Positions 2,450 through 61,190 of a stretch of DNA of 64,000 nt are shown one piece after another. Origin of the DNA: Polyangiaceae bacterium (lineage in GTDB: Bacteria > Myxococcota_A > Polyangia > Polyangiales > Polyangiaceae); NCBI GenBank assembly GCA_050287085.1, contig JBNKBE010000001.1, positions 128,001 to 192,000 of the forward strand, in the 5' to 3' direction. The notes below the pieces were generated by a model, which worked only from the letters and a program-made list of their open reading frames with translations, made no database searches and was not told the DNA's origin. A program made the position numbers and the translations under genes. Numbering within the stretch: the stretch's first letter is position 1; the number at the start of each line of letters is the position of its first letter.

Positions 2450-2877
2450 TGCGGCGAAGAACCAAAACCCGTGGGCTTTGTCAATTCGAGTTGCAGAAGA
2501 CTGAGACCACCCCGTGAATCGGGCGGAAATAACGAAAAAAAGCAGAGGAAAAAAGCGGCAGAGCCGTTCGGCCACCAAGCAGGGCCCCACTCCCCGATCG
2601 CTCGTGATGCAGCTCGCAAACAGTGCCCAGAGGCAGTCCAGAGTCGCCGATTCGGCCCCGGATTTCTGCGACCGCGTCAGCGCTTGGCTGCAACAGAGGG
2701 CCCGAACCCCGAGCCCCAAAGCAATTGTCACCGCGGCCTTGACTCAACCCGGTGGCGTAGCTCCGGACCCATCAAGGCTGGCGACAGTCTCCGGACGCGG
2801 AGAGCCAGCCCTCGGACGACAGCCGTGTCCACTTTCTGTCCCCGCAGCGGGCGCGTCAACAAGCTACACTCCGCTCC

Positions 2878-3705
2878 ATGCATAGCAGCGAGTTCTTGAA
2901 TCTCATGGCAACCCTAGCCCCGCTCGAGCTGGCCGCCTCTTGGGACAACGTGGGGGTGATCGTAGACGCTGCCGAAGAGCGCGACGTGCGCCGCGTCCTG
3001 CTCACGATCGACATGACGGAACACGTTCTGGCCGAGGCGCTCGATTTCGGCGCTGAGGCAATCATTGCCTATCACCCCCCCATATTCAGCGGGCTCAAAC
3101 GCCTTGAACGAACCACTGCCGCAGGGCGCCTGCACCTCGCTCTCATTCGCTCTGGGATATTGGTCTACAGTCCCCACACCGCGCTTGATGCGTGCCGCGG
3201 AGGACTCAACGACTGGCTAGCGGGACTCCTGCCCAAGTCGCTCGCGCGACCGCTCGACCCCCTCCCGGCTCAACCCGAGCTTGGACAGGGCCGTTTCCTC
3301 GAGCTTCAAACGCCCCATTCTCTGGACGCATTGATCACTCTACTCAAGAGCCAGCTTCACCTTGACTACCTCCGTGTCGCTCGCGCGGCTCGCCACAGCT
3401 CCGCTAGCAGCACCCCCTCCAGGCCGGCAACGCCTAATGCCGCGAACGAGCTCATCGCCACGGTGGCGCTCTGTCCTGGCGCCGGCGGCAGTGTGCTTGC
3501 CAACACCAATGCCGACCTCCTGCTCACCGGAGAGATGCGCCATCACGATGTGCTCGCTCATCAGCGCGCCGGCCGGAGTGTGTTGCTGACCGAGCATACC
3601 GGCACGGAGCGGGGTTACCTTCCCGTCCTTGCGGCTCGCCTTGAGACGCTGGGGCTTCTATGCCGCGTCTCAAGGTCCGATCGCGAACCGCTAGAGCTCG
3701 CGTGA
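2878..3705 (+). CDS. Nif3-like dinuclear metal centre protein (YbgI family)
   Basis: LAPLELAASWDNVG, YHPPIF, YSPHTALD, TGEMRHH, EHTGTER motifs. Confidence 0.92.
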   Translation: MHSSEFLNLMATLAPLELAASWDNVGVIVDAAEERDVRRVLLTIDMTEHVLAEALDFGAEAIIAYHPPIFSGLKRLERTTAAGRLHLALIRSGILVYSPHTALDACRGGLNDWLAGLLPKSLARPLDPLPAQPELGQGRFLELQTPHSLDALITLLKSQLHLDYLRVARAARHSSASSTPSRPATPNAANELIATVALCPGAGGSVLANTNADLLLTGEMRHHDVLAHQRAGRSVLLTEHTGTERGYLPVLAARLETLGLLCRVSRSDREPLELA

Positions 3706-43134: not shown

Positions 43135-44472
43135 TCAATCGGAATGTTCAAATTGAATAGGCTCGAAACTGTCCTGACGCTCGGTATTCCCTGAAGCTAA
43201 CTGACCCGATTCGTTAGCCCCTGAACACGCAACGTCGTTTCCTTCAAAAATCACGCAAGTGAAGAATCGACCGGCTGCCACTGCCACCACGCTCGCCGCA
43301 ACGCGTGCCGGCTCGGTACGCGCGTTGACATCGTTCAGCCCGAGTTGACCTTCAATATTGCGTCCCCAACACCAGAGCACCTGTTCGGTATTGATCGCAC
43401 ACGAGTGAAAGGTATTCGAGCTCAGCTCGCGCCAGCTTCCCTCAATGGTTGCGATCGGTTCGATGGCACCTGCCACAGCCGTTCCAAAAGGACCTTCAGG
43501 CGAGCCGACATTGAGTCCCCAACACCAGAAACTTCCGTCCACGGTCAATCCGCACGAGTGGTTTTGGCCGGCCGCCACTCGCTCCCAGCGCTGCAACTCG
43601 CCATTGCGCGTCGGCGCACGACGCTGCTGCTCGTCACTCGTGGAGGTCTCGTGATCCGTATTGCGACCAAAACAGTACAGCGCCCCAGCCGTTGCGACAC
43701 CACAAGTATGACCATTGCCCCCCGAAAGCCAGCGCATGGGCTCGACGTCGACGGCTCTAGGTGACAGGGCGTCGCGGGCTTTCTGATCGCTCGAATAGCG
43801 ATCCCCCAACCCGAGCTGTCCTTCGAAGTTGGCTCCCCAACACCACACGCTCCCGCCCTCATCGATCGCACAGCTGTGGCTTGACCCGGCCGTGATAAAT
43901 ACCATCGGGGCTGGCAGCGAAACCGGCTCCATGGACCCATCGTCCTGACGAGTTCCACGACCTAGCTGGCCGTGCTCCCCCCGTCCGGCACAATACACTT
44001 TGCCCTCGACGGACAGGGCACAAGTGTGGTCGTCCCCAGCGGCGACCGCGCGCCACGGAACGTCCGCGCGCACCTCCGTCGCCACTTGAACGAGCTCAGC
44101 ATGCCCCAATCCAAGCTGCCCATAGGCGTTGTTCCCCCAGCAGTACAAGCGCTCCTGGAGAACGGCGCAAGCATGAGCCACCCCCGCCGTCACCCGGGGG
44201 TTCGAACCGGCCGTCGCGGGATCCGCCCAAGCCCCGGATGCGTCCGCCCCAGGAGCGCTCCGCCGCCCCGCATCGAGCGCATCCTCCGAAGCTCCCTTCT
44301 GGGGTGCACGCCGGATCGGTGTGGAGGCGCCAGGGCTTCGCTCACGGGTCAGGACCTCCACGCTGCGGCTGCACGCCGGCAATCCAGCCCCTTGGGACAG
44401 GATAGCGATGCACAGGGCAAGGACACGACCCACCGCGCGGCTCCCGAATACAGTCAACCGTTCAGCGTTCAT
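43135..44472 (-). CDS. RCC1/BLIP-II repeat beta-propeller, probable lipoprotein
   Basis: About 7 repeats of AG..H(S/T)CA....G.V.CWG.N..GQLG. The ATG overlaps the upstream stop (ATGA). Confidence 0.92.
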   Translation of the reverse strand: MNAERLTVFGSRAVGRVLALCIAILSQGAGLPACSRSVEVLTRERSPGASTPIRRAPQKGASEDALDAGRRSAPGADASGAWADPATAGSNPRVTAGVAHACAVLQERLYCWGNNAYGQLGLGHAELVQVATEVRADVPWRAVAAGDDHTCALSVEGKVYCAGRGEHGQLGRGTRQDDGSMEPVSLPAPMVFITAGSSHSCAIDEGGSVWCWGANFEGQLGLGDRYSSDQKARDALSPRAVDVEPMRWLSGGNGHTCGVATAGALYCFGRNTDHETSTSDEQQRRAPTRNGELQRWERVAAGQNHSCGLTVDGSFWCWGLNVGSPEGPFGTAVAGAIEPIATIEGSWRELSSNTFHSCAINTEQVLWCWGRNIEGQLGLNDVNARTEPARVAASVVAVAAGRFFTCVIFEGNDVACSGANESGQLASGNTERQDSFEPIQFEHSD

Positions 44473-45470
44473 GGCGTCAGACTCGCCCCCAAGTATAACA
44501 GTACTCCTGCCCGCGTCAGGCCCGCGCGGACCGTCCCGTTGTCCGTGACAGCCAATTCTCGGATCGGCAGCGAGATGCCGGCGCCCGCGATGCCATGAAG
44601 ACGCTCGCTCAAGTCCCACTCAGCAGCCAAGCGAGCGTCCAGAGCGACAGTGCTGCCACCTGCGCTTTGCCCAATGACGCCTGGCTCCGCCTTGCCCCGG
44701 AAGCGCCAGTAGCCGCCTTCGATTCCTAATTGTGGGTGTAGGTCAATACCGCGCACGGCCCAGCGGAACCCGAGCGCCACCCGCGCGTGAAGTCCCTGGC
44801 CGGAGATCAGGCCATGGGAGAATTGGCGCGGTAGCGCAGCGCTTCCCCCGAGCGCCAAGACCCAGTTCAACCTTTGGCTCAGCGGATAGCGTGCGGCAAG
44901 CTCTCCCCCCAGAAGTGCACTGGCGCGCCAGTAGTACCGACCGGATAGCAGCGCCTGCAGAGCTCCAGCAGGCTGCTCCAAGGACGACGTACTGGTCGCG
45001 GGTGACCTCACGGGCGCCGAGGGAGGCTCCGCAGCGGGGGCGGCGCGCACCACGCGCGGCAGTGCGGCAAGCATCTCGTCCGCGGCGAGGGCCAGTGCCA
45101 GCGCCTGCCCATCGGGTGGCAGCAAACGAAGGTCAACACCCCGTCGGGCACGTTCATGCCCCACGGAAACCAGGACAAGCGCATGCTCGTCACCGGCAAA
45201 GGTGATTCGCACAACGCCGTGAACCCCTTCACCGTCCCCGGCGCATAGGATCAGCTCCCGCGCTGCCAACTCGCTATACAGGTCTTGGACTAGAGCTGAG
45301 CGCAACGCATTCGACGCGCCGCCGGACACTTCTAGAGCTACCCCGTCGTCGGTCGTGTCAGCACACGCCGGGAGCTCGGCCAGCCCTGATGGGACCGCCA
45401 ACGCGGAGCGTACGCTGAACACCAGGGCGAATGCGCTCGCCACGCCAGTCCTACGCCCTACGCAACCCAT
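44469..45470 (-). CDS. Putative outer-membrane protein (periplasmic N-domain + small beta-barrel)
   Basis: Signal-like MGCVGRR...SALA, Pro linker, C-terminal alternating hydrophobic/Gly strands ending LYLGASLTP. Start uncertain (45470-45566). Confidence 0.6.
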   Translation of the reverse strand: MGCVGRRTGVASAFALVFSVRSALAVPSGLAELPACADTTDDGVALEVSGGASNALRSALVQDLYSELAARELILCAGDGEGVHGVVRITFAGDEHALVLVSVGHERARRGVDLRLLPPDGQALALALAADEMLAALPRVVRAAPAAEPPSAPVRSPATSTSSLEQPAGALQALLSGRYYWRASALLGGELAARYPLSQRLNWVLALGGSAALPRQFSHGLISGQGLHARVALGFRWAVRGIDLHPQLGIEGGYWRFRGKAEPGVIGQSAGGSTVALDARLAAEWDLSERLHGIAGAGISLPIRELAVTDNGTVRAGLTRAGVLLYLGASLTP

Positions 45471-45565
45471 CACCGTGCCATGCTGTATCGGAGCGCGCGC
45501 CCACCGCAAGGATACAGGCCGCCGCCCGTCGGTCGGGCCCATCGCAACACACACCCTCAATCGCA

Positions 45566-46801
45566 CTATCGGGGCGACGAGCCGAGGCAGCCACGCGCCA
45601 CCGAGTCGGCATGCAGTCCCCGTGGGTAACGCTGCAGGTAATCCTCTCGCGCCTTTCGGCACGCATCGAGCTGCCCCAGCGCGTCGTAGACGCGAACCAG
45701 ACGGGCTCGGGCATCACCGGCGAAGCTAGCCCCACCGGCCGACCTCACTGCATGCTTCAGCGCCCGCAGGGCGCCCGGCATGTCTCCGAGACGATCCATC
45801 CGCAGTCGCCCCAACTCAAAGGCTGCCAGTCCCCCTCGCTCGTCGGCCGGATAGCGCCTCAACAGCTCAGCGTACGCGGCTGCAGCGTCCGCGCTCCGAC
45901 CAGAACGCCGCGCCTCCGTGGCGCGATCCCACAATGACTTGGCACTTCCTTCGCCGATAAGCTCGGCGGTCGATGGCTTCTTGGGCTCCTGGCTCGACGG
46001 CGCCGGCAGGGAGCGTCTAGGGATATTGGCGTCCGTTTCTGAAGGCCTCGCCGGCCCCGACGTAGCGCTAGCCCCCGAGGCGACGGACTGCCCACGTTCG
46101 ACAGTCACGGTATTGCCAGCCCCCAGCGAACGACTACGACCGGACGGGTCGCGAAGGACCACCGCACCTCGCAGAACCGCCACGATCACGCGACCTGCAA
46201 CCCCAACTTCGACCACGAAGCGGCCCTCTGTGCCCTCTACAAGCAGCTCTCCGGCGCGGACGCGCAGGGGGGCCGGCGAACCGTCCAAGGTCACGCTCAG
46301 GGTGCCCCGGCGGAGCTCGACCTGCGTCGTCGCCGCTGTTGCCTGAGAAACGGTCGCAGCGGAATGCTGCCCGAGTTCAAGTGACGCTCCGCAGTCGACA
46401 TCCAAGCTCAACGGTACATCCTCGGCCACGTAGACAACCGGCGCGGAGTCGTTCGGCGTTCCGGGACTCGCCAGCTTGCCCCCCGACGCCTGCGCCCGTG
46501 GTGATTCAGCAAGCGGAGGACGATCGGACTGCAGACCGTTTGACGAAGCGCCCACCCGCTCAGACGCTCCCGCTGCCGAGCCTCCACGGGCGAGCAATGC
46601 TTCTTCACGCGGCCCGATTCGGGTCAGAAACCCCACCAGAAGCGCTGATGACGCTAGCGCGCCCGCGGAAACCAGCAGCCACGGAGCCATCGGCCCCCGC
46701 CTTCTTCCCTCGAGTCGTTGCGCAATCGCCTCATAGCTGCGCTCCAGTCGAGCTCGCTTGAGCTCAACGGGCACGTACTCCGACAGCCGCGGCTCGGTCA
46801 T
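45566..46801 (-). CDS. FecR-domain anti-sigma factor with C-terminal TPR
   Basis: N-terminal TM, VELRRG.L.V...LRVRAG..VE...RF.V FecR-like strands, LWDRA.EARR.G...AA..Y..LL.RYP TPR. Confidence 0.8.
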   Translation of the reverse strand: MTEPRLSEYVPVELKRARLERSYEAIAQRLEGRRRGPMAPWLLVSAGALASSALLVGFLTRIGPREEALLARGGSAAGASERVGASSNGLQSDRPPLAESPRAQASGGKLASPGTPNDSAPVVYVAEDVPLSLDVDCGASLELGQHSAATVSQATAATTQVELRRGTLSVTLDGSPAPLRVRAGELLVEGTEGRFVVEVGVAGRVIVAVLRGAVVLRDPSGRSRSLGAGNTVTVERGQSVASGASATSGPARPSETDANIPRRSLPAPSSQEPKKPSTAELIGEGSAKSLWDRATEARRSGRSADAAAAYAELLRRYPADERGGLAAFELGRLRMDRLGDMPGALRALKHAVRSAGGASFAGDARARLVRVYDALGQLDACRKAREDYLQRYPRGLHADSVARGCLGSSPR

Positions 46802-46847
46802 GGCTTCTCCTTGGAGGCCGAAGCCGATGGAACCAAAAGACGTATCA

Positions 46848-47432
46848 TCATCGCTTGCGCGCTCGCTGGATCCGCGCGTCCGCCGCAGCTAGGCGGCGCT
46901 TGACGGTCGCTAGGGACAACCCCATTTGTTCCGCTATATCGGTTAGTTCCAGCCCCTCGATGCGTCGCAGAACAAGCGCCACGCGCTCCTCGGCGGGCAA
47001 CGCCTCGACCATGGAATAGACAGCGCGCAGCTCCGCCCGAACGTCCGGGGGGGCGTCGTCCGAGATCAGCTGGGCCCAATCGAGAGGCTCGGGCTGAAGC
47101 ATCCCCAGGCGCACCAGCAAACGTCGCCGACGCAGACGCTTGCTCGCGGTCCGCACTACAATCGACGCAAGCCAAGAGGCAAACGCCTGCGGGTTGTTCA
47201 GCGTTTCGAGCTTTGAGAACGCGAAAACAAAGGCATCCTGGACCAGATCGTCCACCTCGCCCCGCCCTGCCAGCACCCGGTGAGCCAGCCCGAAGGCGAG
47301 CCCGGCGTGGCGACGGTAGAGGGCTTCTTGGGCGGCGGCGTCGCCTTGCCGCGCCGAGACCACCAATTCCGCATCGCGGACCTCCGACAACGCCCCCGAT
47401 CGGGGTACCCTGGGAACAACCCGAGAACGCAT
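46848..47432 (-). CDS. ECF sigma-70 factor
   Basis: DAELV..AR.GD..A.E.LYRRH, DDLVQDAF, FASWL..I, LP.EER..L.LR.IEGL...IA..MG.S.ATVKRRL. Start uncertain. Confidence 0.93.
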   Translation of the reverse strand: MRSRVVPRVPRSGALSEVRDAELVVSARQGDAAAQEALYRRHAGLAFGLAHRVLAGRGEVDDLVQDAFVFAFSKLETLNNPQAFASWLASIVVRTASKRLRRRRLLVRLGMLQPEPLDWAQLISDDAPPDVRAELRAVYSMVEALPAEERVALVLRRIEGLELTDIAEQMGLSLATVKRRLAAADARIQRARKR

Positions 47433-47823
47433 TTCCGTCGCCTCGGACTGCTCCGAGCAACTTCGCGCCGAAGGCGGAGCCAGCTCCAGCGCCTCTATTG
47501 GACCACTCTTCGGAGCCGTCGCCAGCGCGGCGCCCCCGGCGCTGGGAGCCTGACTGGTACGCGAAGCCCGGGCAGAATCGTCCAAGACCCCAGATGCAAG
47601 CGCATGCGAAGTCGGACCTGAGCCTGAAGCAGAGCGAACCACGAGACATCCTAGCCTACCGCCTTTGAGCCGCGCGCCAATCAGAAAGCCGCGATTTGGT
47701 CGAGCGCCTGCTACAAATGTCCCAGCATTGCTCACCTGCGGCTCAGATTTCTTCGAGGTCGATATGGCCCACGCAACTTGTTGGCCCTAGGCGACCCGAG
47801 CTATATCGTCTCCAAGGTGCGCA

Positions 47824-50214
47824 TTGAAGGCCGAGCATAGCGACGAAACCAACAGCGCCGCTGCGTCCGAGCGGAACGGATCTCCTCCTAGTACTCTCCC
47901 TCCAGCGGATTCGGACGTCCTGATCGGCACGACGCTGCACGAGACCTACGCCGTGCAGCGCGTGATTGGCGAAGGCGGCATGGGACGTGTCTACGAGGCT
48001 CGGCACACCCGGATCAAGAACAAGCGCTTTGCGCTCAAAGTGTTGCACGCAGAGTACGCCGCCAACACCGAACTCCAATTGCGCTTTCAGCGCGAAGCCG
48101 AAGCCGCCGCGGCGATTGAACACCCAGCGGTAGTGGGCACCTATGACATAGGACGAACGCCACAAGGCTCTCCCTATCTGGTGTCTGAGTTCTTGCAGGG
48201 GCGCGACCTAAACTCCTATATCGTTGAGGTCGGAGCACTGCCCGAGAGGGTTGTGCTCCGAGTCGGAATCCAGCTGTGTCGGGCCCTCGCGGCGGCCCAT
48301 GCAGAGAACGTGATTCACAGGGACATGAAGCCCCACAACGTCTTCGTCCTCGGCAGCGGAGAACTGGAAGCCGAAAGCCCCGTCGACGTGAAAGTCCTCG
48401 ACTTCGGCCTTTCGCGCTTCGTTGACCACGACAGTCAACTCACCAAGACGGGCGTCGTCCTGGGAACCCCGGGCTATATGTCGCCCGAGCAAGCACAAGG
48501 CCAGGAAACAACAAAGCGGACAGACATCTACGGTATCGGGGCGATTCTCTATGCTGCCGCAACGGGGCGCCCACCGTTCAAAGAGAAAACGCCACAACTG
48601 ACTGTGCTGGCGGTGATGCACCGAGAGCCCCAGCGTCCACGCGACGTCGAGCCTCGGGTTTCTGCAGAGCTCGAATGGGTCATTCAGCGGGCGATGGCTC
48701 GCGAGCCGCAGCAGCGTTTTGCAACGCCCGAAGAGATGGAACAGGAGCTGCTGCAGTTGCTCGGCGAGCCGACGCAAGCCCGCCGCTCGCTCCCCGAAGA
48801 CGCCGGTCCGACCGCGGCCCGCACGCGCCTGCTAATGTGGCTGCTGGCCGCCTTCGGGCTGCTGGCGGCTTGGGCGCTGACGGCTTTCAGCGCGGCCTTG
48901 CACCTGGTTCGGGCGGAGTCGCCAACAGGTCGCATTGGGGCCTCTTTCGTCGCCGCCGGCGCTTGCCTGCTGGCTCCCGTGTTCATCTGGAGACGACTGC
49001 GCGCGACGGTTTGGAACAACACCGCACACGTCGTTGACGCCCTGAAGCAGGCTCGCCCGCCAGTGGCGACAGGGCTGGCGGCGTACGGTGCCAGCGCGCT
49101 CCTCGTACGGGTTCTGGAAACCGGCATTCCATCCCTCTCGCAGCCGCTGCACGAGTGGCGGGGTTGGGGCCTCTCGCTCGCGCTCGTGGGGGCCATCTAC
49201 GCGTCGTTTGCCGCCGTCGTTGCCAGTCCCAAGCGGAGCCGCTTGCTGCCTCCGCGGCTCTTGTTTGCGCTCGCCTTCGTTCTGGGTCTCTTGGTCCTCG
49301 CTTCGAGCGTATCGAGCGCGCTGCGCGGTGTTGAATCAGCGGACGCGCTCGAAGTCCCACCGAGTGCGCCGAACGTCCCCCCGAAAGCCCCCGCGCCCAC
49401 GCGAAGTGGCGGCCACGAGCGCATCGCTGACGGCCTTATCACGGCGCGCGACGGAGGACGCGCAGATGCGGGCCCGACCGCTCTGTCCCAAGGCGTCGCA
49501 GACTCACCCATCATCGTGGACCTCGATCCGACGGACGATAGCAGCCTTGGCGGCGCCCCCAACGAACAACATGCCGATGTCGCGGAACTCAGCAGCGCTG
49601 TCGCAGAAGGGGCCGCCGCGTTGGAGTCACTGACCCGGAGTTACCCGCGGGACCCCGAAGTTCATAAAGCGCTGGTTCTGGCTTATGCGGCGCGGGCCTC
49701 GACCCTCGCAAGTTCCGTGGACGCCATCCGCCGGCTGCTTCGCATCGACATAGACTACGCCGACGATTCCGAAGTGCGTATCATTCTCACCAAGGCACTG
49801 ACGACGGATGGCGCGCCGCAGAAGGCGGCATTCTCGGTGTTGGAGAATGAGTTCGATGTGCGAGCTGGGGCACTGGTCTTTGACTTGCTGGTACGCGCGG
49901 GACGCGATCGAACCACTCTAAATCGGCTATTCCTGCGCCTCCGACGAAAAGCGAAAACCAGCAGCCCCGTCAACATTGCGTACGACTTGCGCTTCGCCCC
50001 CTCGTGCTCTGCACGAGTGAAGTACCTTCCCCAAGCGCGCGCCGTGGGAGACATTCGAGCGATCGCAGCACTGCTCCCTTTGGTCACCCCGCCTCGCGGA
50101 TGCCAAGGAAGACAATGCCGCGTCCAGTGCGAAAGCGAAGCGGAGGCGTTCGAGTCCGTGCTCGCCGCTATCCGGGCCCGCTTGGGCGGCGACAGTGGCA
50201 TGACCGAGCCTTGA
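47824..50214 (+). CDS. Hanks-type Ser/Thr kinase with multi-TM region and helical/Cys C-terminal domain
   Basis: IGEGGMGRV, FALK, HRDMKPHN, DFG, YMSPEQ; about 5 TM helices. Confidence 0.95.
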   Translation: MKAEHSDETNSAAASERNGSPPSTLPPADSDVLIGTTLHETYAVQRVIGEGGMGRVYEARHTRIKNKRFALKVLHAEYAANTELQLRFQREAEAAAAIEHPAVVGTYDIGRTPQGSPYLVSEFLQGRDLNSYIVEVGALPERVVLRVGIQLCRALAAAHAENVIHRDMKPHNVFVLGSGELEAESPVDVKVLDFGLSRFVDHDSQLTKTGVVLGTPGYMSPEQAQGQETTKRTDIYGIGAILYAAATGRPPFKEKTPQLTVLAVMHREPQRPRDVEPRVSAELEWVIQRAMAREPQQRFATPEEMEQELLQLLGEPTQARRSLPEDAGPTAARTRLLMWLLAAFGLLAAWALTAFSAALHLVRAESPTGRIGASFVAAGACLLAPVFIWRRLRATVWNNTAHVVDALKQARPPVATGLAAYGASALLVRVLETGIPSLSQPLHEWRGWGLSLALVGAIYASFAAVVASPKRSRLLPPRLLFALAFVLGLLVLASSVSSALRGVESADALEVPPSAPNVPPKAPAPTRSGGHERIADGLITARDGGRADAGPTALSQGVADSPIIVDLDPTDDSSLGGAPNEQHADVAELSSAVAEGAAALESLTRSYPRDPEVHKALVLAYAARASTLASSVDAIRRLLRIDIDYADDSEVRIILTKALTTDGAPQKAAFSVLENEFDVRAGALVFDLLVRAGRDRTTLNRLFLRLRRKAKTSSPVNIAYDLRFAPSCSARVKYLPQARAVGDIRAIAALLPLVTPPRGCQGRQCRVQCESEAEAFESVLAAIRARLGGDSGMTEP

Positions 50215-50236
50215 ATGGGTCCTGGCCCCCGCGGCC

Positions 50237-50629
50237 TCAGGCCTCTATCAGCGCGGCTGGACCGCCCGCTGCAATGAAGCGCGCATAGTCCCAAGGCTCG
50301 TCGCTCAGACGCGAGAGAAACTCATCGCGCAACACATACACCCAGACCGCAAAGCGGCGCTCGGGAACAACCATGATCGGTACCCGAATGCGGCGGTACT
50401 CGGTCCCTTCATAGCCGTCGAGACGCAACAACTCACGCCCTCCTATCCCCGTCACCACACGCCCCCAAACGTGCGTCCCGAACTCCGGGCGCAGTCCCGG
50501 ATAGCTTTGCCCACGTACCGTGTAACAACCAAAGTGCGACAAGCAGGCAATTCGGCTGGCATGCCGCCTGCCAACGATGTGCCGCCACACGAGGGGTGAC
50601 AACAAACTCCCATACACGAATAGGTCCAC
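50237..50629 (-). CDS. Gamma-glutamylcyclotransferase (AIG2-like) family protein
   Basis: LFVYGSL, YPGL, V.G.V, LD.YEG.EY.R. Confidence 0.9.
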   Translation of the reverse strand: MDLFVYGSLLSPLVWRHIVGRRHASRIACLSHFGCYTVRGQSYPGLRPEFGTHVWGRVVTGIGGRELLRLDGYEGTEYRRIRVPIMVVPERRFAVWVYVLRDEFLSRLSDEPWDYARFIAAGGPAALIEA

Positions 50630-50799
50630 CGAAAGCCTGTATCATGGTCCAAGGCCCCAGGCCCCCCACCTAGAATTCGGCGGCTGCCCCCGCTCCGGGA
50701 ACTTGCGCCCCAAACGGCGCCTGCAAACCATCTCGGTCGCGCGCCCAGCGCGGCGCATTTGACCTGCCGGGCCGACGACAGGCAACATGGCACATCGTT

Positions 50800-52410
50800 A
50801 TGACTGATCGCGCCACCGCTTCCCGCCGGGTTTCCGTTCGCTCATGCCGGACTCGGCGGCCAGGCCGTCGCTCGGCAGCGCTGAACCTTCTGCTCGCCGC
50901 CGCCGCCACGGGCTCACTGTTGACGAGCGGTTGTGCGCAGGTGCGAGAACCCGGCGCCAGCAAGTCGGAACTGCTGGCAGAGCGCAAGGCCAAGGCCTGC
51001 GAGCCACACCAATTCCGCTGCGATGACGGAACGTGCATCACCCGCCAATGGCGTTGTGATGGTGACAACGATTGCCCGGATCGCTCGGATGAAAAGAGCT
51101 GCAGCTGTAGTCGGGACCAATTCGCCTGTGACGAAGGAGCTTGTATCTCCGCTGAAGCCGAGTGTGACGGAACCGAAGATTGCGCGCACGGGGAAGATGA
51201 AGCTGAGTGTGACTGCAAAGATGACGAGTTTTCCTGCGGCAACCACCAATGCATTCATGAGTCGGATGTCTGCGACGGCACCGAAGACTGCGCTGAGGGC
51301 GAAGACGAGAAAGGCTGCGCTTGCGCCGACGACGAGTTCGCGTGCGACGACACGTGCCTTCCCCGTAGCGTGGTATGCGACGGCGACACCAATTGCGTCG
51401 ATGGTAGCGACGAAGCGGAGTGCGATTGTGATGGCTTCCGCTGCGAGGACGCCACAAGCTGCTTACCCGCAGACAAGCGCTGCAACGGTGACGCGGACTG
51501 CGAGGATGGCTCCGACGAAGCTGGTTGTTGTGAAGACAACCAGGTTACTTGCGCCGACGGCACGTGCCTCGAATCCTGGACGCGCTGCAATGGCATGAAC
51601 GAATGTGGCAGCGGCGAGGACGAAGCCGACTGCGCCTGCGAAGCAGGCCTCTATTCCTGTGATGACGACACGTGTATCGATCCGCGACAAGCGTGCAATC
51701 ACGTGACGGTGGCGGGTTGTCCCCAGGGCGAAGACGAACTGCGCTGCCCCGCCTGCAACGACTGGCAATTCATGTGCAACAACGGCCAGTGCGTACCGCG
51801 TGCGTGGCGCTGCAATGGCAGGGTTGATTGTATCGACAGCAGCGACGAGAAAGACTGCCCAGAATGTGACGGCAAGCTGGACTGCAGCGCAGAGAGCTGC
51901 GTCTGTGTGAAAGACTGCGCCACCCGCCCCGAGATGTGCCCTGTAGGCACCTGTGAAAGTCAGGGCGAAACCAAAGATTTCATTCGCTGCAACGACCTAC
52001 TCGATTGCGACGACGGGAGCGACGAAGCCGACTGCCCCTGCGCGCCGGACGACTTCGTGTGTCCGGAAGGCGGCACCACCCCTGCTTACTGCGTGCCGGC
52101 AGCCTGGGCCTGTGACGGCTTGCGAGACTGCCCGGGGGGTACCGACGAAGCAAACTGCGAGTGCAGGGAGGGTGACTTCATGTGCCCGGCGGGAAACGGC
52201 GTAGTGGGACACTGCATCTCCGGACTCTGGGCATGCGACGCCTACCCAGACTGCGCGGACGCCAGCGACGAGGCCGATTGTCCCTGCGAGAGCGGCGCAT
52301 ACCTATGCCCAGCCACCAGCGTGACGCGAGCCTACTGCGTCCCGGGAGAGTTCGAGTGTGACAGCCTCGTCGACTGCCCCGATGGTGCCGATGAAGCGAA
52401 CTGCAAATAG
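50800..52410 (+). CDS. Lipoprotein composed of about 12 LDL-receptor class A repeats
   Basis: LTSGC lipobox; repeats such as [35 protein letters not shown] and [35 protein letters not shown]. Confidence 0.92.
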
Positions 52411-52416
52411 CTTGCA

Positions 52417-53673
52417 CTACGCAAGGGCGGCGCGTCCAATCGCCCTCGTCGGAACGATGGCTCCGAGGCGAGCGAGCACCGCATATAGCCCAAACAACGC
52501 GCGGTGCAGCAGCAATACCTCGCGCGGCAACGGCACCAAACTGCCGTCCCGCGTCTTCAACGCCCCGCGCAGCAGCCGCATCACAGACGTCGCCTCACGG
52601 ATAAAGGAACGCTCGAAACGAAACCGCTCTTCAAACATCGGTCGAAATAGACACCGCATGAAACGTTGCATGCCGGCTTCGTAGTCCCCCCCACGAAGAG
52701 CAAAGTAGTCGCGCACGGCAGCTTCGAAGGCCGGCAGATTGGCTTCCAACGCCGCGGCCAACAATCTCCGAAGTCGCACTGCACGGGCCGGAGCCAGCTG
52801 CTGAACGCAGCCGAAATCGAGGAATACAACCTTGCTGTCCCGACAGAACAGATAGTTGCCGGGATGAGGATCAGCGTTGAACGCACCCGCCCGCAGGACG
52901 CTCGTCACGAAGAAACGAAATAACGTCTCTGCGTAGAACTGACGATGCCGTTCGCTGTGCGTCAAAGCGTCGCGAAAGCTTTCCCCGCTACTGAAGTGTG
53001 TCGTTAGCACGCGGCGGCGTGACAGCTCCGGCACCAAACGCGGCACATAGATAAACTCGTCTTCCGCGAAAGCCTCTTCGAAGGCCGTCAGATTGCGAGC
53101 TTCGCTTTCGTAGTCGAGTTCCCTCAGCAACTGCCGTGCGAGTTCCTCACTCAATTCGCGCGCGTTCAAACTGGCCGGAGCCAAGCGCGCGACCAAGAAC
53201 TCAAGCCAACGAGCGTTCGCCAAATCCGCGCGCATGGCGGCTTCTATTCCGGGGTGTTGTACTTTGACGGCCACACTGCGCCCATCGCGCAGCCGAGCGC
53301 GATGCACCTGTCCGACGCTTCCGCTCTTCACGGGCACAGAGTTCCAGCGCTCGAAAAGAGCCTCTGGAAGTGCCCCCAACTCCTCGCGTATGATCTGAGC
53401 AATAGGCTCAACGGGCGACGCCATGGCCTCGTCTTGGAGGCGCCAGAATGCGTTCTCGAATCCCGTGGCCTGTCCCCCAGGCGCAAAGCCCTCTACATAC
53501 CCCAGCCACTGCCCGGCCTTCGCGGCAGGGCCCCGCAACGCGGACAAGGCGCGGGCCGCATCTTCCAGCCGCTTGCTGCCCCCGATGCCAACGGCGGCAG
53601 CTCCAACACACGATGCAGCTTTGGCTCCTTGGGCCAAGCGACTGACGCGCGTCGTGGGGAGCGGTGCGACCAT
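52417..53673 (-). CDS. ABC1/UbiB (AarF) atypical kinase
   Basis: K.GQ, SVGQVHRA, VAVKVQHPG, ELDY..EA.N, NADPHPGN, DFG. Confidence 0.92.
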   Translation of the reverse strand: MVAPLPTTRVSRLAQGAKAASCVGAAAVGIGGSKRLEDAARALSALRGPAAKAGQWLGYVEGFAPGGQATGFENAFWRLQDEAMASPVEPIAQIIREELGALPEALFERWNSVPVKSGSVGQVHRARLRDGRSVAVKVQHPGIEAAMRADLANARWLEFLVARLAPASLNARELSEELARQLLRELDYESEARNLTAFEEAFAEDEFIYVPRLVPELSRRRVLTTHFSSGESFRDALTHSERHRQFYAETLFRFFVTSVLRAGAFNADPHPGNYLFCRDSKVVFLDFGCVQQLAPARAVRLRRLLAAALEANLPAFEAAVRDYFALRGGDYEAGMQRFMRCLFRPMFEERFRFERSFIREATSVMRLLRGALKTRDGSLVPLPREVLLLHRALFGLYAVLARLGAIVPTRAIGRAALA

Positions 53674-53897
53674 AGCCCTAGTCCTAGGCCGGCGCGGGGC
53701 CGGTTGACAATACCGTCAGCGTGCGGACGCACGGATCCGGCTGGATTGGCGTCGCTCGCCACAAGGAGTCGTTCGCTCTTGGAACTGGCCGCGTGCTGCC
53801 GGCCGGGTTTTTAGGCAACTCTTCGGCCCAACACGTCCGGCGCGGCGAAGCCGCCACAGCAGACAGGTGGGACCGCTGCCACTTCGACCTCGAGCTG

Positions 53898-53918
53898 AAA
53901 AGGGCCTTTGCAGGCCCT
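53898..53918 (-). terminator. Intrinsic terminator after the radical SAM gene
   Basis: Minus strand AGGGCCT-GCAA-AGGCCCT followed by a short T run. Confidence 0.6.
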
Positions 53919-53948
53919 CCGAGAGCTCCGGGCGAGGGAAAACGAATG

Positions 53949-54815
53949 TCAAGGCGTGATCCGCACAGCCCAACCGACGGCGCGAATACGAGCCGCAAGA
54001 TCCTGGAACCAGTCGTCGGACAGCGCGCTCAGGCGTGGCGCCTCAGCTTGAAGCGATGGGCGCGAAAGGCCGTAGAGCAGGACCCCGCGAAGCGGAATCC
54101 CCTCGCTTTTCAGCCGCTGCAGCAACGCAAGATACGCTTGCTGCTCGGAAGCTTCGGGGGCGCTCCCGTCGATGGCAAACAGACAGGTCTGCAACCAGGT
54201 TGGATGACGAGCGGCTATTCGAGCCAGGCGAGCCTCACGTGCCGCCAAGCTCGCGCTCGACGAGTTGATCCGCTCTGTGCCCGCCCGGGTTGCGGCATCC
54301 AGCTTAAACCACACTTCGATAGGCCACCGCGCCAAGACGTCCAGGCCGCGCTCGACGGAGGGCGCATCAGTGCGCGTCCCGTTGGTGATGAGCACGATTT
54401 TGAAGTCCGCGGGAAGCGTAAACCGCGATAGAATAAGAGCTACCTCGGCCGCGACCTGTTCAAAGTTGGGACACGTCGTGGGTTCCCCATTGCCCGAAAA
54501 AGCGAGATCGTTGAGCCGTCGCATCCCCTCGGGAACGCGGCGCGTCATGAAGTCGCCGCAAATCAAGTCGTCTAGAAGCTCTGTCAGCTCCAGCCGCAAG
54601 CGATCGATATCAACCGCTGGTGCCTTCCCCCACTTGAGGTTTGGAACCTGGCAGTAGATGCAGCGAAAATTGCAGGCATTGTTCGGATTGAGGTTGACGC
54701 CGAGCGACACACCTCCGGCGCGGCGCGACAGTACCGGGTAAACATAGGTCATACCGGTCGCATCCCGATCATGGTCTGCGATGCTGAGAAGCCGGCGCGC
54801 TGTGAGTCGCGTCAT
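53949..54815 (-). CDS. Radical SAM protein (uncharacterised, COG0731-like)
   Basis: YPVLSRR.GGVSLGVNL, CNFRCIYC (CX3CX2C), FSGNGEPT, LITNG, KLDA. Confidence 0.9.
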   Translation of the reverse strand: MTRLTARRLLSIADHDRDATGMTYVYPVLSRRAGGVSLGVNLNPNNACNFRCIYCQVPNLKWGKAPAVDIDRLRLELTELLDDLICGDFMTRRVPEGMRRLNDLAFSGNGEPTTCPNFEQVAAEVALILSRFTLPADFKIVLITNGTRTDAPSVERGLDVLARWPIEVWFKLDAATRAGTERINSSSASLAAREARLARIAARHPTWLQTCLFAIDGSAPEASEQQAYLALLQRLKSEGIPLRGVLLYGLSRPSLQAEAPRLSALSDDWFQDLAARIRAVGWAVRITP

Positions 54816-54870
54816 GGGTAGCGTAATGTCCTATGCATCGGGAATGCGACCAACAGGAGAGCCGAACGAG

Positions 54871-54894
54871 CCCGCGGTCTAAAACGACCGCGGG
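54871..54894 (-). terminator. Hairpin downstream of the cytochrome lipoprotein gene
   Basis: cccgcggtc-taaaac-gaccgcggg 9-bp perfect stem; no clear U-tract. Confidence 0.5.
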
Positions 54895-54922
54895 TCAAAG
54901 GACTGCAAGCCTCCGCGGCGGT

Positions 54923-55570
54923 CTACTTGATGGCTTGCAGCAGCTTGCGCAGATCGGCGACCGCGTTGCTCTTGTTGGTGTAGGTCTTCTGGTTATCGTG
55001 GCAGCTTGAGCACTTGAAGCTTTGTCCCTTTGACTTGCCCTGCTTGACCCAATACTTCATCACCGCCTTGGCCTTGGGAACGCCCCCTTTTTCGCAGGAA
55101 GCTCTGACCTGAGAGAACTTAAAGGAGGTCGCACGACAGGGACTGGGACCGTCGTATTTCTCCGCTTTGGGCGGCGCCTTGGGCGGCGTCTTGGGTGTCG
55201 CCGTCGCCACCGGCTTGGGGGCGCTCGGTGCAGCCGGCGGCTTGACTGCCGCCTTACCAGACGCTGTTGGCGACTTGACCAGGTGTGCACTCTTAGCGCT
55301 GGCGCTAGTCGTGGGCGGCGCTGCTTTGCCGGCGTCCTGAGCGGCGACGCCTGCGTCAGCCCGTTGCTTCGTCCCTTCGAGAGTCTTCCCCCGAGCTCCG
55401 CTCGCCGCGGAGTTATCAGCCGCAGGGGTGTCGGCAATCGTCCCCTTGCTATCGGCGGCAGCAGCCGGAGCCGACTCAGTCGCCTCCTTCTTTGAGCACC
55501 CTGCGGCAGTCACAGCACCCAGCGCACAGGCGCCCGTCAACAGAAGACTGAATCGTGTTGTTCTATTCAT
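54923..55570 (-). CDS. Lipoprotein with Ala/Pro/Lys linker and C-terminal CXXCH (c-type cytochrome candidate)
   Basis: AAGC lipobox; FKCSSCH; very Lys-rich C-terminal domain. Confidence 0.72.
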   Translation of the reverse strand: MNRTTRFSLLLTGACALGAVTAAGCSKKEATESAPAAAADSKGTIADTPAADNSAASGARGKTLEGTKQRADAGVAAQDAGKAAPPTTSASAKSAHLVKSPTASGKAAVKPPAAPSAPKPVATATPKTPPKAPPKAEKYDGPSPCRATSFKFSQVRASCEKGGVPKAKAVMKYWVKQGKSKGQSFKCSSCHDNQKTYTNKSNAVADLRKLLQAIK

Positions 55571-57760: not shown

Positions 57761-58774
57761 ATGCGACTGCTCATCGAAACCCACCACCCGGCGCATATTC
57801 ACTTCTTCAAACACGCCGTGCGTCATTTTAGAGCGCAGGGAGCTGAGGTGCTGCTCCTAGGCCGGGATCGCGATGTGATGCAACGTCTACTTGCCAGCTA
57901 CGATGACCTCCCGAGTCGCATCATCACACAAGCGGGCAAGAACAACACGTTTCCTTTGCAGGAGATGGTGCAACGACAATGGCAGGTGGCTCGGACGATT
58001 CGTGAATTCGAACCGGACGCCGTGCTCAGTCTGATGGGCAGCTACTCGCAGAGCGCACGCATGCTCGGAGTGCCCAACATCGTCTTCACGGACAGCGAGT
58101 TCCAGCACTTCAATCACCGCATCGCGCATCCTTTTGCGACCCGCATCTACACTCCGGAGTGTTTCTACAAGCCGCTGGGCCCAAAACAGCGGACCTATCG
58201 TGGGTATCATGAGCTCGCGTTTCTCCATCCAAAGCGCTTTCGGCCAGACCGGGGTGTGCTCGACCTGCTGGGCGTCGAAGCGGGCCGGTATGTCATCGTC
58301 CGCGTCTCAGCTTGGGACACGCTGCACGACGTAGGAGAGTCCGGCTTCGGCGCCCAATTGGACGAGACCCTCGAAGCGCTGTCCCAGCGCTTCCGGGTGT
58401 TCATTGTGCCGGAACAGGGAAAACTCGCCGCCCGCTGGCGCCCTATGCAGCTAGAACTCCCCCCACATCGCTTCCACGACGCGTTGGCCTTTGCCGCTTT
58501 CGTCGTATCCGAAGGGGCATCGACCGCAGCCGAAGCCGCTTGCCTGGGCGTCCACGCACTCTACCTCAACAGCACCACACGCGGCTACCTCAACGACATG
58601 GCACGCCGCTACGGTCTCGTATCAATCCACCAGCACTCGGACGACGCGCAGCGTCAACTGCGCCGCTGGCTCACTTGCCCCCCAACGGACGGGCAGAAGC
58701 GTGCGCAAGAACTGATCGCAGACCATATCGACGTCACGGATTTCGTAATTCACGAGATCGAGAACCTGGTATGA
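57761..58774 (+). CDS. DUF354 GT-B-fold glycosyltransferase-like protein
   Basis: HHPAHIHFFK, GVPNIVFTDSE, YRGYHELAFLHPKRF.PD, EGAS.AAEAA.LG. Confidence 0.85.
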   Translation: MRLLIETHHPAHIHFFKHAVRHFRAQGAEVLLLGRDRDVMQRLLASYDDLPSRIITQAGKNNTFPLQEMVQRQWQVARTIREFEPDAVLSLMGSYSQSARMLGVPNIVFTDSEFQHFNHRIAHPFATRIYTPECFYKPLGPKQRTYRGYHELAFLHPKRFRPDRGVLDLLGVEAGRYVIVRVSAWDTLHDVGESGFGAQLDETLEALSQRFRVFIVPEQGKLAARWRPMQLELPPHRFHDALAFAAFVVSEGASTAAEAACLGVHALYLNSTTRGYLNDMARRYGLVSIHQHSDDAQRQLRRWLTCPPTDGQKRAQELIADHIDVTDFVIHEIENLV

Positions 58775-58805
58775 GGGCTCACTGACGAGCCTCGAAGGAA
58801 GACCT

Positions 58806-61190
58806 ATGCGATTTGGACGCTTCGACGATGAAGCCAGAGAATACGTAATCGAACGCCCCGACACACCCCGCTCCTGGACCAATTACCTTGGCTCCACGGA
58901 ATACGGCGCGATCATCACCAACAACGCTGGTGGCTTTAGCTTTTACAAGTCATCGGCCCAGGGTCGCTTCACCCGCCTGGTGCTCAACAATGTGCCGATG
59001 GACCAACCAGGTCGCTATCTCTATCTGCGCGACGCCGAAAGCGGGGACTACTGGTCCGCGAGCTGGCAGCCGGTGGGCAAAGCGCTCGAGGAATACGAAA
59101 GTGAGTGTCGACACGGCACCGCGTATACGGTGATCACCAGCCGCTACTCCGAGGTAAGAACTCAAACTACCTATTTCGTGCCGCTGGGTGAGAACTTCGA
59201 GCTCTGGCATCTCACCGTCAAGAACGAAAGCCAACGTCCGCGGAAACTGCGACTCTTCTCGTACGTGGAGTTTTCCGGCGAGTGGAATATCCAGCAAGAC
59301 CTGCTCAACCTGCAGTTCACCCAGTACACGGTAAAAGCAGCCAACGTCGACGGGATTCTGCAGATCGGCGTACTCGATAACGTTCCGCCCGATCCGAACA
59401 ACTTCCAGAATAGGGACCAAGGGCGCCACTCCTTCATGGCGCTCGTGGGAGCTGAAGTCACAGGCTTCGACACCGCGCGCGACACTTTTATCGGCCCGTA
59501 TCGAGGCTATGGCAACCCGACCGTCGTAGAGCGGGGAGAGTGCACTGGCAGCCTGGCACATGGTGACAACGCCTGTGGGTGTGTACAAGCGGATCTATCG
59601 CTATCGCCCGGCGAGGAACGCTCGCTCTGGGTGGTCATGGGGGTTGGCACAGCGGCGAACGAGGGTCGCCGCGCAGTAGCCACGTTCCAAAGCGAAGAGG
59701 CCGTACAGGCCGCTCTAGAATCGCTGAAGGAGCATTGGCATTCCAGACTCGGTCGACTGACGGTGGATACACCTGACGCCGAGTTCAACAGCATGGTCAA
59801 CGTCTGGAACGCCTACAACTGCCTCATCACGTATGCGTGGAGCCGCGCAGCAAGCCTGGTATATGCTGGCGCCCGCGATGGCCTCGGCTACCGGGACACC
59901 GTTCAAGATATCCTCGGGGTGCTTCCGGCCATGGCGGAAGAGGCGGGTACGCGTCTTGAGCTTATGATCACTGGCCAATGCGAGAGCGGAGGTGCATTGC
60001 CGGTCGTCAAACCCTTTGCGCACACGCCGGGTCGCGAAATTGCTCCTGATTCATACCGCTCGGACGACTGCTTGTGGTTGTTCAACACCGTGCCGGCATA
60101 TGTCAAAGAGACAGGTGACATTGCCTTCTACAACAAGGTCCTGCCTTACGCCGATCGTGGCGAGGCAACCGTATTGGGTCACTTGCGGCGTGCACTCGAA
60201 TTCAACCTAGCGCGCTGCGGCCGTCACGGATTGCCTTGTGGCCTGGACGCCGACTGGAACGATTGTTTCCACCTCGGAGAGCTCGGCGAGAGCGTATTTG
60301 TAACCTTCCAGGTCCGCTATGGCCTGAAGGTCTACCAGGAAATCGCAAGCTACCTCGACCGTCCGGAAGAAGTTAGCTGGGCCGGCGAGCGTCTCCGACA
60401 TATTGACCAGCTCATCGAAGAGCACACTTGGGACGGACAATGGTTCGTGCGAGCCTACAAAGACGACGGCGCGGTCTACGGCTCGAGCAAGAACGCCGAG
60501 GGACGCATCTTCCTCAACACGCAGAGTTGGGCGGTGCTGGCAGATGTCGGCTCAAAGACGCAGCGCGAGCTTGCCATGTCCTCAGTAGATGAACACCTAG
60601 CCACCCCCTATGGCGCAGCGATCCTCGACCCCCCCTACCGTACAGAGGATTGCCGCGTGATTCGAGCCATGGTGCTCAACGAAGGCCAGAAGGAAAACGC
60701 CGGCATCTTCTGTCATCCTCAGGGATGGGCGGTGATCGCCAATACTCTACTTGGGCACAACGATCGCGCCTATCGCTACTACCGAGCCTACATGCCCGCG
60801 GCGTACAACGAGCACGCCGAAGTTCGACAAATCGAGCCGTATGTCCACTGCCAGTCGACCCACTCAAAGTACAGCGGTCAATTCGGTGCCAGCCGCCTTC
60901 CCTGGCTCAGCGGCACCGCGTCCTGGAGCTACTTCGCCGCAACGCAGTACATTCTGGGAATTCAGCCCGACTACGACGGCTTGCGCCTAGACCCCTGCCT
61001 GCCCAGCGACTGGAAGACCGTCACTTGTCACCGCCATTTCCGCGGCAAGAACTTCGACATTGCGATCAAGAACGGCAAACAAGGCAAGGGCGTCCGTCGC
61101 TTAGTCGTCAACGGGGAGCTCACTGCGGGCGCGCTCATTCCGGCGACTGCGTTCCGGACGCACAACGTGGTCGAAGTCGAACTCTATTGA
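58806..61190 (+). CDS. GH94 glycoside phosphorylase (chitobiose/cellodextrin phosphorylase-like)
   Basis: FG.FDD..REYVI.RPDTP.SWTNYLG, DYWSASWQPV, GLGYRDTVQD, RSDD.LWL, ADWND, KENAGIFCH, WLSGTASW. Confidence 0.95.
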   Translation: MRFGRFDDEAREYVIERPDTPRSWTNYLGSTEYGAIITNNAGGFSFYKSSAQGRFTRLVLNNVPMDQPGRYLYLRDAESGDYWSASWQPVGKALEEYESECRHGTAYTVITSRYSEVRTQTTYFVPLGENFELWHLTVKNESQRPRKLRLFSYVEFSGEWNIQQDLLNLQFTQYTVKAANVDGILQIGVLDNVPPDPNNFQNRDQGRHSFMALVGAEVTGFDTARDTFIGPYRGYGNPTVVERGECTGSLAHGDNACGCVQADLSLSPGEERSLWVVMGVGTAANEGRRAVATFQSEEAVQAALESLKEHWHSRLGRLTVDTPDAEFNSMVNVWNAYNCLITYAWSRAASLVYAGARDGLGYRDTVQDILGVLPAMAEEAGTRLELMITGQCESGGALPVVKPFAHTPGREIAPDSYRSDDCLWLFNTVPAYVKETGDIAFYNKVLPYADRGEATVLGHLRRALEFNLARCGRHGLPCGLDADWNDCFHLGELGESVFVTFQVRYGLKVYQEIASYLDRPEEVSWAGERLRHIDQLIEEHTWDGQWFVRAYKDDGAVYGSSKNAEGRIFLNTQSWAVLADVGSKTQRELAMSSVDEHLATPYGAAILDPPYRTEDCRVIRAMVLNEGQKENAGIFCHPQGWAVIANTLLGHNDRAYRYYRAYMPAAYNEHAEVRQIEPYVHCQSTHSKYSGQFGASRLPWLSGTASWSYFAATQYILGIQPDYDGLRLDPCLPSDWKTVTCHRHFRGKNFDIAIKNGKQGKGVRRLVVNGELTAGALIPATAFRTHNVVEVELY

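Follow-up and report, generated by a model that had tools for sequence, protein, structure and literature searches.

Why should a myxobacterium encode a protein made almost entirely of LDL-receptor class A (LDLa) modules, is such a gene its own, and what might the protein do for the cell? These questions are raised by an open reading frame on the forward strand (50800-52410, +) of a 64,000-nucleotide stretch of DNA from a Polyangiaceae bacterium, the whole of which is called the window below.

Architecture of the encoded protein

The reading frame encodes 536 amino acids plus stop, and the only Pfam family found in it was Ldl_recept_a (PF00057; E 1.5e-89, 294 bits against a cut-off of 24.1, in 10 stretches), as the scan at E 0.01 returned nothing else. 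Modules were delimited by motif parsing on their conserved C-terminal half, which gave 12 C-terminal half-modules, 11 of them with the full six cysteines and one (R9) degenerate. Profile and parsing confirm the array of about 12 LDLa repeats given in an earlier note on this DNA. In a profile search of the genome, 10 of the 12 modules (R1-R6, R8 and R10-R12) passed the curated Pfam cut-off singly, and R7 and R9 stayed under it. The modules occupy residues 67-535, and the chain stops one residue past the last module's cysteine. The layout is as follows:

50800..50934, + strand: predicted lipoprotein signal, with an Arg-rich N-region, a hydrophobic stretch and the lipobox LLTSG-Cys45
50935..50997, + strand: short tether (residues 46-66), in which a helix is predicted at model residues 11-20
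50998..51102, + strand: R1, the top-scoring module (E 5.4e-14), with Trp, four acidic cage positions and a full D-x-D-x-D crown
51106..51747, + strand: R2-R7, inferred stalk of six modules with linkers of 0-1 residue, the aromatic residue being absent from all
51754..51858, + strand: R8, with Trp present and Asn at cage position I
51859..52035, + strand: Cys-rich insert and degenerate R9 (residues 354-412), a possible hinge with 10 Cys and low model confidence
52039..52404, + strand: R10-R12, inferred binding head, with a 123-bp period, a 9-residue C2-C3 loop, and the aromatic residue together with four acidic cage positions

The median cysteine spacing of the modules is 6-4-6-5-8, the same as in 761 animal modules and in 272 modules of the myxobacterial set (loci L013-L030, L031-L154 and L155-L183, which include some titled Deltaproteobacteria or unplaced). 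An insert loop noticed earlier in the last three repeats was confirmed, as the C2-C3 loop of R10-R12 has 9 residues instead of 4, owing to a five-residue hairpin insert. Since these modules also form one clade in the module tree (local support 0.83) and repeat with the 123-bp period, they likely arose by internal triplication. R7 is degenerate in that its C4-C5 loop is two residues longer and non-acidic. Linkers measure 0-2 residues in 10 of 10 junctions, compared with 17% of the 796 junctions in animals and 27% of the 184 in the myxobacterial set. The mature part is strongly acidic (122 Asp and Glu against 33 Lys and Arg, for a net charge near -89), and after the lipobox cysteine it holds an even number of cysteines (76), from which about 38 disulfides are predicted. 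The disulfide connectivity of LDLa modules is C1-C3, C2-C5 and C4-C6.

Structure prediction with AlphaFold2, using a 41-sequence alignment rich in animal LDLa sequences, gave a model with a mean pLDDT of 80.3 and a pTM of 0.37, which describes folded beads whose packing is undefined; pLDDT was mostly under 50 at model residues 313-346, in the region of the Cys-rich insert and R9. Single LDLR and ApoER2 modules overlay the model with rmsd 0.9-1.3 and Z 5.6-6.4. Thus, R12 overlays LDLR CR2 (5oyl; Z 6.4, rmsd 1.3, 39 aa), R8 overlays LDLR LA5 (1ajj; Z 6.3, rmsd 1.3, 37 aa), and the pair R1-R2 superposes on LA3-4 as seen in the RAP complex (2fcw; Z 8.2, rmsd 3.2, 73 aa). With these LDLR modules (PF00057) the query shares the 6-4-6-5-8 spacing, the F-x-C and C-D-G-x-x-D-C-x-x-x-x-D-E motifs and a predicted fold at about 1.3 A, which agrees with the earlier assignment, although the likeness is partly expected because the alignment behind the model is rich in animal LDLa. 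Moreover, LDLa proteins account for all 26 PDB sequence matches with an E value of 1e-10 or below. For a relative of the four-cysteine kind, the single-sequence model was poor (pLDDT 35) and was left out.

A native gene that stands alone

The GC3s of the gene is 0.695 against a genome median of 0.705 (39th percentile of 2619 ORFs), and its codon score lies at the 68th percentile of 2596 ORFs, in line with the native look that had been judged by eye. Chimeric assembly had been named as a concern, and a single 30.3-kb Logan contig, made by an independent assembler, covers positions 47500-55500 with no joints or differences, although the run may be the source sample and so is not independent. The repeats within the gene have a DNA identity of mostly 60-75% across the module cores, and so are not the product of an assembly duplication. 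In addition, the intron-free ORF, with its bacterial lipobox, sits on a 491-kb contig amid myxobacterial genes. Of the top homologues of the window's GcvPB, the nine with an organism name belong to Polyangiaceae (7) or Myxococcales (2), which marks the host as a Polyangiaceae-type myxobacterium, and the gene is native to it.

The opposite explanation, that a fragment of an animal LRP was mis-assembled into the genome or lately transferred to it, draws on the fact that the best-scoring full-length homologues are animal proteins, that such contamination exists in public bins (L047/L048), and that R1, R3 and R8 fall on the animal side of a profile classifier. However, identity to those animal homologues is only 26-43%, and the family occurs in 16 of the 62 families sampled in the phylum. 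Together with the codon use, the spanning contig and the genomic setting, this largely refutes an artefact or recent import, which we find hardly credible.

Both flanking genes, a gamma-glutamylcyclotransferase-like gene upstream and an ABC1 kinase downstream, lie on the opposite strand, and the gene therefore stands alone; strong matches to the kinase were seen in only 2 of the 17 genomes of the genus. No match to a sigma-70 promoter was found for the gene, and no RNA holder is listed for the locus. Among the 71 neighbour ORFs scanned with Pfam, out of 153 around loci L032-L077, neither a conserved transporter nor a recurring partner was seen apart from two protein kinases and some genes of mobile elements, and a conserved operon was rejected on these grounds.

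The genome holds 36 ORFs of at least 300 aa with more than 7% Cys, the LDLa gene among them, as well as nine DsbA-like domains in five ORFs, which could serve as folding factors for the LDLa protein. Two ORFs (G000:C9:93760-95823 and G000:C33:34684-37320) each carry three tandem DsbA-like Thioredoxin_4 domains and are candidate folders of Cys-rich exported proteins. Elsewhere in the window, a lipoprotein-like ORF of 1325 aa with 14% cysteine (36551-40528, +) contains Dictyostelium CTDC repeats (PF00526, E 2.5e-15), another eukaryote-type repeat in the same window as the LDLa gene. At 43135-47735 (-), an ECF sigma factor, an anti-sigma-like protein with TPRs, a protein without annotation and a lipoprotein-like protein with RCC1 repeats are encoded in a cluster that resembles a unit for signalling at the cell surface, and at 57761-61190 (+) a DUF354 gene is followed by a GH94 phosphorylase.

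LDLa proteins in Myxococcota and other bacteria

PF00057 matches were obtained in 13 of 17 other genomes of the same genus and in 48 of 300 genomes of the phylum (about one in six), compared with none of 14 control genomes; the 300-genome sample consists mostly of metagenome bins with 24 candidates scored per genome, and a few hits may be contamination. The view that LDLa modules are uncommon in bacteria thus stands for the controls, but not for this phylum. Presence and copy number differ freely between genomes of the genus. When species genomes were scanned for the exact motif, at least 124 loci were returned and, among the matches listed (124 loci), 78 are titled Myxococcota, 16 Deltaproteobacteria, 8 unplaced proteobacteria and 22 other bacteria, the latter including Nocardia, Streptomyces, Marinimicrobia, Endozoicomonadaceae and others. 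Cultured carriers among the matches listed include Minicystis rosea, Nannocystis exedens and Enhygromyxa salina. The exact motif had no match in viral contigs.

Proteins annotated in Myxococcota as 'LDL receptor domain-containing proteins' share with the query a lipobox, the lack of a catalytic domain, a C-terminal LDLa array and a stand-alone gene; 67 of 80 complete non-redundant LDLa ORFs of the myxobacterial set end no more than 15 residues past the last module. The protein belongs both to the LDLa module family and to this unstudied Myxococcota lipoprotein family. Unlike the query, in which all complete modules have six cysteines, the myxobacterial set has lost C1 and C3 together in 310 of 549 modules (four-cysteine LDLa); C3 is thus absent from 310 of 549, against 14 of 835 animal modules. 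Where one upstream cysteine is left it is nearly always C2, which lies 11-12 residues before C4 in 205 of 226 cases. Joint loss of C1 and C3 is what would be expected if the C1-C3 disulfide were dispensable. Two features common to many relatives, a long acidic linker and a helical Cys-rich domain, are also missing from the query. Many four-cysteine modules sit behind such a helical Cys-rich domain, which is unannotated and has no Pfam match.

No close orthologue was found in the 17 genus genomes, where matches cover generic modules only, or in JGI metagenomes (45 pattern matches, 0 confirmed), and no NCBIfam family was found. The earlier note had asked whether homologues with a characterised function are already widespread in bacteria: homologues are indeed widespread in Myxococcota, and some are automatically named 'LDL receptor domain-containing protein' at NCBI, but no characterised function was found for any of them, and a literature search, run mostly without subscription papers, found no description of bacterial LDLa proteins.

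LDLa modules also occur in other protein contexts. The second LDLa gene of this genome (G000:C9:49422-51545, -; locus L011:421-2544) combines a trypsin domain, four reduced-form LDLa modules and DUF7151 repeats, and its product has a hydrophobic-basic C-terminal tail. L076 shares this layout and L104 combines trypsin with LDLa, which recalls the LDLa serine proteases of animals. In Marinimicrobia, LDLa is joined to a GH18 chitinase and a dockerin, or stands in a protein with a Por_Secre_tail, and in one Myxococcota genome it is joined to cadherin-like/Big_9 repeats (L090, L060, L176). A lipoprotein-like ORF of a bin titled Deltaproteobacteria (L043:2120-3232, -) bears Notch LNR repeats (PF00066, E 4.7e-17) next to LDLa, two animal-type modules within one bacterial protein. 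Small proteins with one C-terminal LDLa were seen in three Nocardia genomes and one Streptomyces genome (L041, L045, L069, L034, L087). In Minicystis rosea, the immediate upstream neighbour of a GH31 glycosidase gene, on the same strand, encodes an LDLa lipoprotein (L072:1-2418 (-) and 2486-3625 (-)), a single case that may be due to chance; eukaryotic glucosidase II is composed of a GH31 subunit and an LDLa subunit. Finally, L047/L048 (a Verrucomicrobiales bin, with an LRP-like ORF carrying EGF repeats) and L051 are likely eukaryotic contamination, consisting of an LRP-like ORF and an exon-like LDLa stretch on short contigs.

Lipid anchor and cell location

The lipoprotein architecture proposed earlier also holds as a prediction. 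The lipobox LLTSG-C45 fits a PROSITE-type pattern, with an atypical Thr at -3 and an atypically long leader of 44 residues, and export and lipidation at Cys45 are predicted from it. Of 80 complete relatives, 65 show a lipobox-like motif ahead of their first module, compared with 13.9 +/- 3.3 in shuffles. According to the available part of a report on Myxococcus xanthus, lipoprotein sorting there turns on Lys at +2 and Ala at +7 (PMC3222651). As the query has Ala at +2 and Pro at +7, and thus neither Lys nor Ala at the respective positions, the outer membrane seems the probable destination rather than the inner membrane or matrix, by analogy with this distant myxobacterium.

No membrane span or cytoplasmic tail was found in the 536-aa protein, which therefore cannot signal or internalise by itself. 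LDLR, VLDLR, LRP1 and LRP2/megalin, its top sequence and fold matches, also present a long tandem class A cluster on a membrane. Unlike them, however, the query has no EGF/YWTD domains, membrane span or cytoplasmic internalisation tail, its anchor is a predicted N-terminal lipid, and there is no endocytosis to couple to. The protein is not a member of the LDL-receptor family, and the proposal of a receptor, in the animal sense, is not supported, in view of these features and of the lack of conserved transporter genes among the neighbours scanned.

Calcium cage and candidate binding modules

An LDLa module is defined by six cysteines and four acidic Ca2+ ligands, and ligand lysines dock on acidic positions I and II beneath an aromatic residue (PMC5847621, in the part available). 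In the query, all four acidic cage positions are present in six of the 12 modules (R1-R3 and R10-R12), for which Ca2+ binding is predicted; R2-R3 thus have a complete cage, in R4-R7 one of the cage positions is taken by Asn, and Asn or other changes are found elsewhere. Cage and aromatic residue occur together only in R1 and R10-R12, the other eight modules being without the pair, which is kept in 245 of 549 myxobacterial-set modules. The full D-x-D-x-D acidic crown is found in R1 alone (1/12), compared with 334 of 835 animal modules. In R10-R12 the middle position of the crown is hydrophobic (Leu, Tyr and Leu, respectively). Of the cage-plus-aromatic modules, 102 of 245 bacterial ones have Tyr, Ile, Phe, Val or Trp at this position and 340 of 459 animal ones have Asp or Glu, so that the hydrophobic residue of R10-R12, judged by sequence, follows the bacterial pattern. 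Altogether, the query differs from an animal LDLa array in keeping cages and aromatic residues in only some modules, in its very short linkers, and in the hairpin insert and hydrophobic crown residue of R10-R12. Capture of basic proteins, as first proposed, is hence plausible for R1 and R10-R12 but not for the other eight modules, and only R1 has the full crown.

Several relatives have decayed anchor-side modules and intact far-side ones. Nevertheless, this trend is modest: in 29 relatives, some of them near-duplicates, the far half was richer in cage-plus-aromatic modules in 12, the near half in five, and 12 were tied, while 52 far against 39 near modules were intact out of 116, near-duplicate proteins included.

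Proposed function and its alternatives

Taken together, the protein has close to an even chance of being a non-catalytic outer-membrane tether, stiffened by calcium and disulfides, that grips partner proteins. The lipid anchor at Cys45 would hold the array at the outer membrane, R2-R9 would act as a stiff spacer, and R1 and the far-end R10-R12 would do the gripping. By analogy with animal modules, a lysine of the ligand would dock on the acidic cage beneath Trp or Phe, and the three adjacent modules R10-R12 would supply avidity. The ligand would most likely be one of the cell's own secreted or envelope proteins, and it may be unlike apolipoproteins because of the hydrophobic crown residue and insert loop of R10-R12. 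The fusion of LDLa to exported trypsin, GH18 and cadherin-like domains elsewhere is as expected of an add-on binding module. What speaks against a tether is that eight of 12 modules lack the cage-plus-aromatic pair, that a single module has the full acidic crown, and that relatives show just a weak enrichment at the far end, drawn from proteins that are not independent.

These same eight modules suit a purely structural role, in which a rigid, very acidic, calcium-loaded stalk or envelope/matrix scaffold would have no specific ligand site and the query would be one of many interchangeable cysteine-rich lipoproteins. The short linkers in all junctions, unlike most animal and myxobacterial-set junctions, and the free variation in presence and copy number within the genus point the same way, as do the 36 long Cys-rich ORFs, because of which LDLa may be one of several interchangeable disulfide modules. 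However, exposed Trp or Phe and full cages are kept together in three far-end modules, nearly half of the myxobacterial-set modules keep the pair, and a pure stalk normally bears a functional tip, which here is LDLa itself. We consider a structural role rather unlikely, albeit the next in line after the tether.

The strong negative charge of the mature chain could instead make the array a decoy or sink that soaks up foreign cationic proteins, such as lysozymes, antimicrobial peptides and proteins of phages or competitors, ahead of their contact with the membrane. The ligands of LDLa modules in animals comprise many unrelated proteins with lysines, viral ones included (PMC5847621, in the part available), a patchy and fast-changing distribution without conserved neighbours would suit a defensive accessory, and LDLa proteins are also found in host-associated Endozoicomonadaceae. 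Nevertheless, the window shows no defence-island context, the neighbours being the gamma-glutamylcyclotransferase-like gene, the ABC1 kinase and a Ser/Thr kinase; the genome has one gene of this type, and surface exposure is only putative. A decoy is accordingly improbable.

The capture of lipoproteins had been suggested as well, and an LDL-receptor analogue might take up lipoprotein particles or sterol carriers. The carriers Minicystis rosea, Nannocystis exedens and Enhygromyxa salina are sterol producers. For the last of these, sterol production is described in the available part of PMC10202945. LDLa was found in 9 of 32 genomes with a strong match of the oxidosqualene-cyclase type and in 39 of the 268 others (odds ratio 2.3, p 0.07, with kin not independent); genomes above 340 bits were counted as positive, and 10 weaker, probably hopene-cyclase-type genomes were left out. 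However, 39 of the 48 LDLa-positive genomes lack the cyclase, no match to it was found in this genome, and the protein has no membrane span or tail, nor a conserved transporter among the 71 neighbours scanned. Given the weak association in the 300-genome sample and the missing cyclase match, the sterol link was rejected; lipoprotein capture is not supported, and an uptake analogue of this kind is very unlikely. A part in predation, also suggested in the earlier note, gains no support from these results, nor do they speak against it.

Relation to eukaryotic LDLa proteins

We compared the animal and myxobacterial sets over 35-column modules. Nearest neighbours of the query modules are split between the two sets, and the profile classifier placed 8 of 11 modules on the bacterial side, although it partly reads composition, its bacterial class held some four-cysteine modules, and the animal set had been picked by likeness to the query. 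The module tree has 23 label changes, against a shuffled mean of 43.6 and the single change that two clean clades would need, with support of at least 0.9 at 9% of nodes. Nearest-neighbour, profile and tree tests therefore did not cleanly separate bacterial from animal lineages. The breadth of the family in the phylum and the phylum-typical four-cysteine form nonetheless point to long residence in Myxococcota, and the relevance to domain sharing between myxobacteria and eukaryotes seen in the earlier note is supported.

Outside the animal receptors, a profile from the myxobacterial alignment matched glucosidase II beta (PRKCSH; E 2.2e-5), and R12 overlays 7k9n_B of this protein with Z 5.2 and rmsd 2.0 over 37 aa. 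Unlike the query, glucosidase II beta is an ER-resident subunit of a eukaryotic enzyme with a short LDLa region, and the PRKCSH-type Pfam family had no match on the 18 bacterial proteins scanned. Its KEGG orthologue is presumably K08288. K08288 is listed among functions detected in the eukaryotes' last common ancestor (LECA; PMC13468126, supplementary file 3), and the available part of PMC4680877 annotates glucosidase II beta with an LDL class A domain. The LECA study assigned a Myxococcota affiliation to 3.92% of the LECA proteome (PMC13468126); PF00057 has no entry in the four supplementary files searched, and LDL is not mentioned in the part of the paper available.

One scenario is that LDLa was an old envelope domain of myxobacteria, which branched within Myxococcota into forms with six and with four cysteines and was one of the genes handed on by the phylum to early eukaryotes. 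Glucosidase II beta would have been its first setting there, and its copies would have increased later on in the LDL receptors, complement and LDLa proteases of animals. We regard this as a long shot, and repeated uptake from eukaryotes is at least as likely as a myxobacterial source of eukaryotic LDLa.

Conclusions

The family is already auto-annotated in databases, and the query is one of its members. LDLa is usually treated as a hallmark of animal cell-surface receptors, and here it is a native module of the envelope that is shuffled freely throughout a bacterial phylum, one that has been named as a gene donor to LECA (PMC13468126, in the part available). A bacterium that folds dozens of disulfides in LDLa arrays without an ER chaperone is of practical interest. 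As cultured carriers exist (the three species named above), function and ligand are testable. If a myxobacterial source of eukaryotic LDLa were true, the protein would represent the ancestral ligand-capturing array of LDLa modules as a living model in bacteria, and the trypsin-plus-LDLa layout of the same genome would be part of that model.
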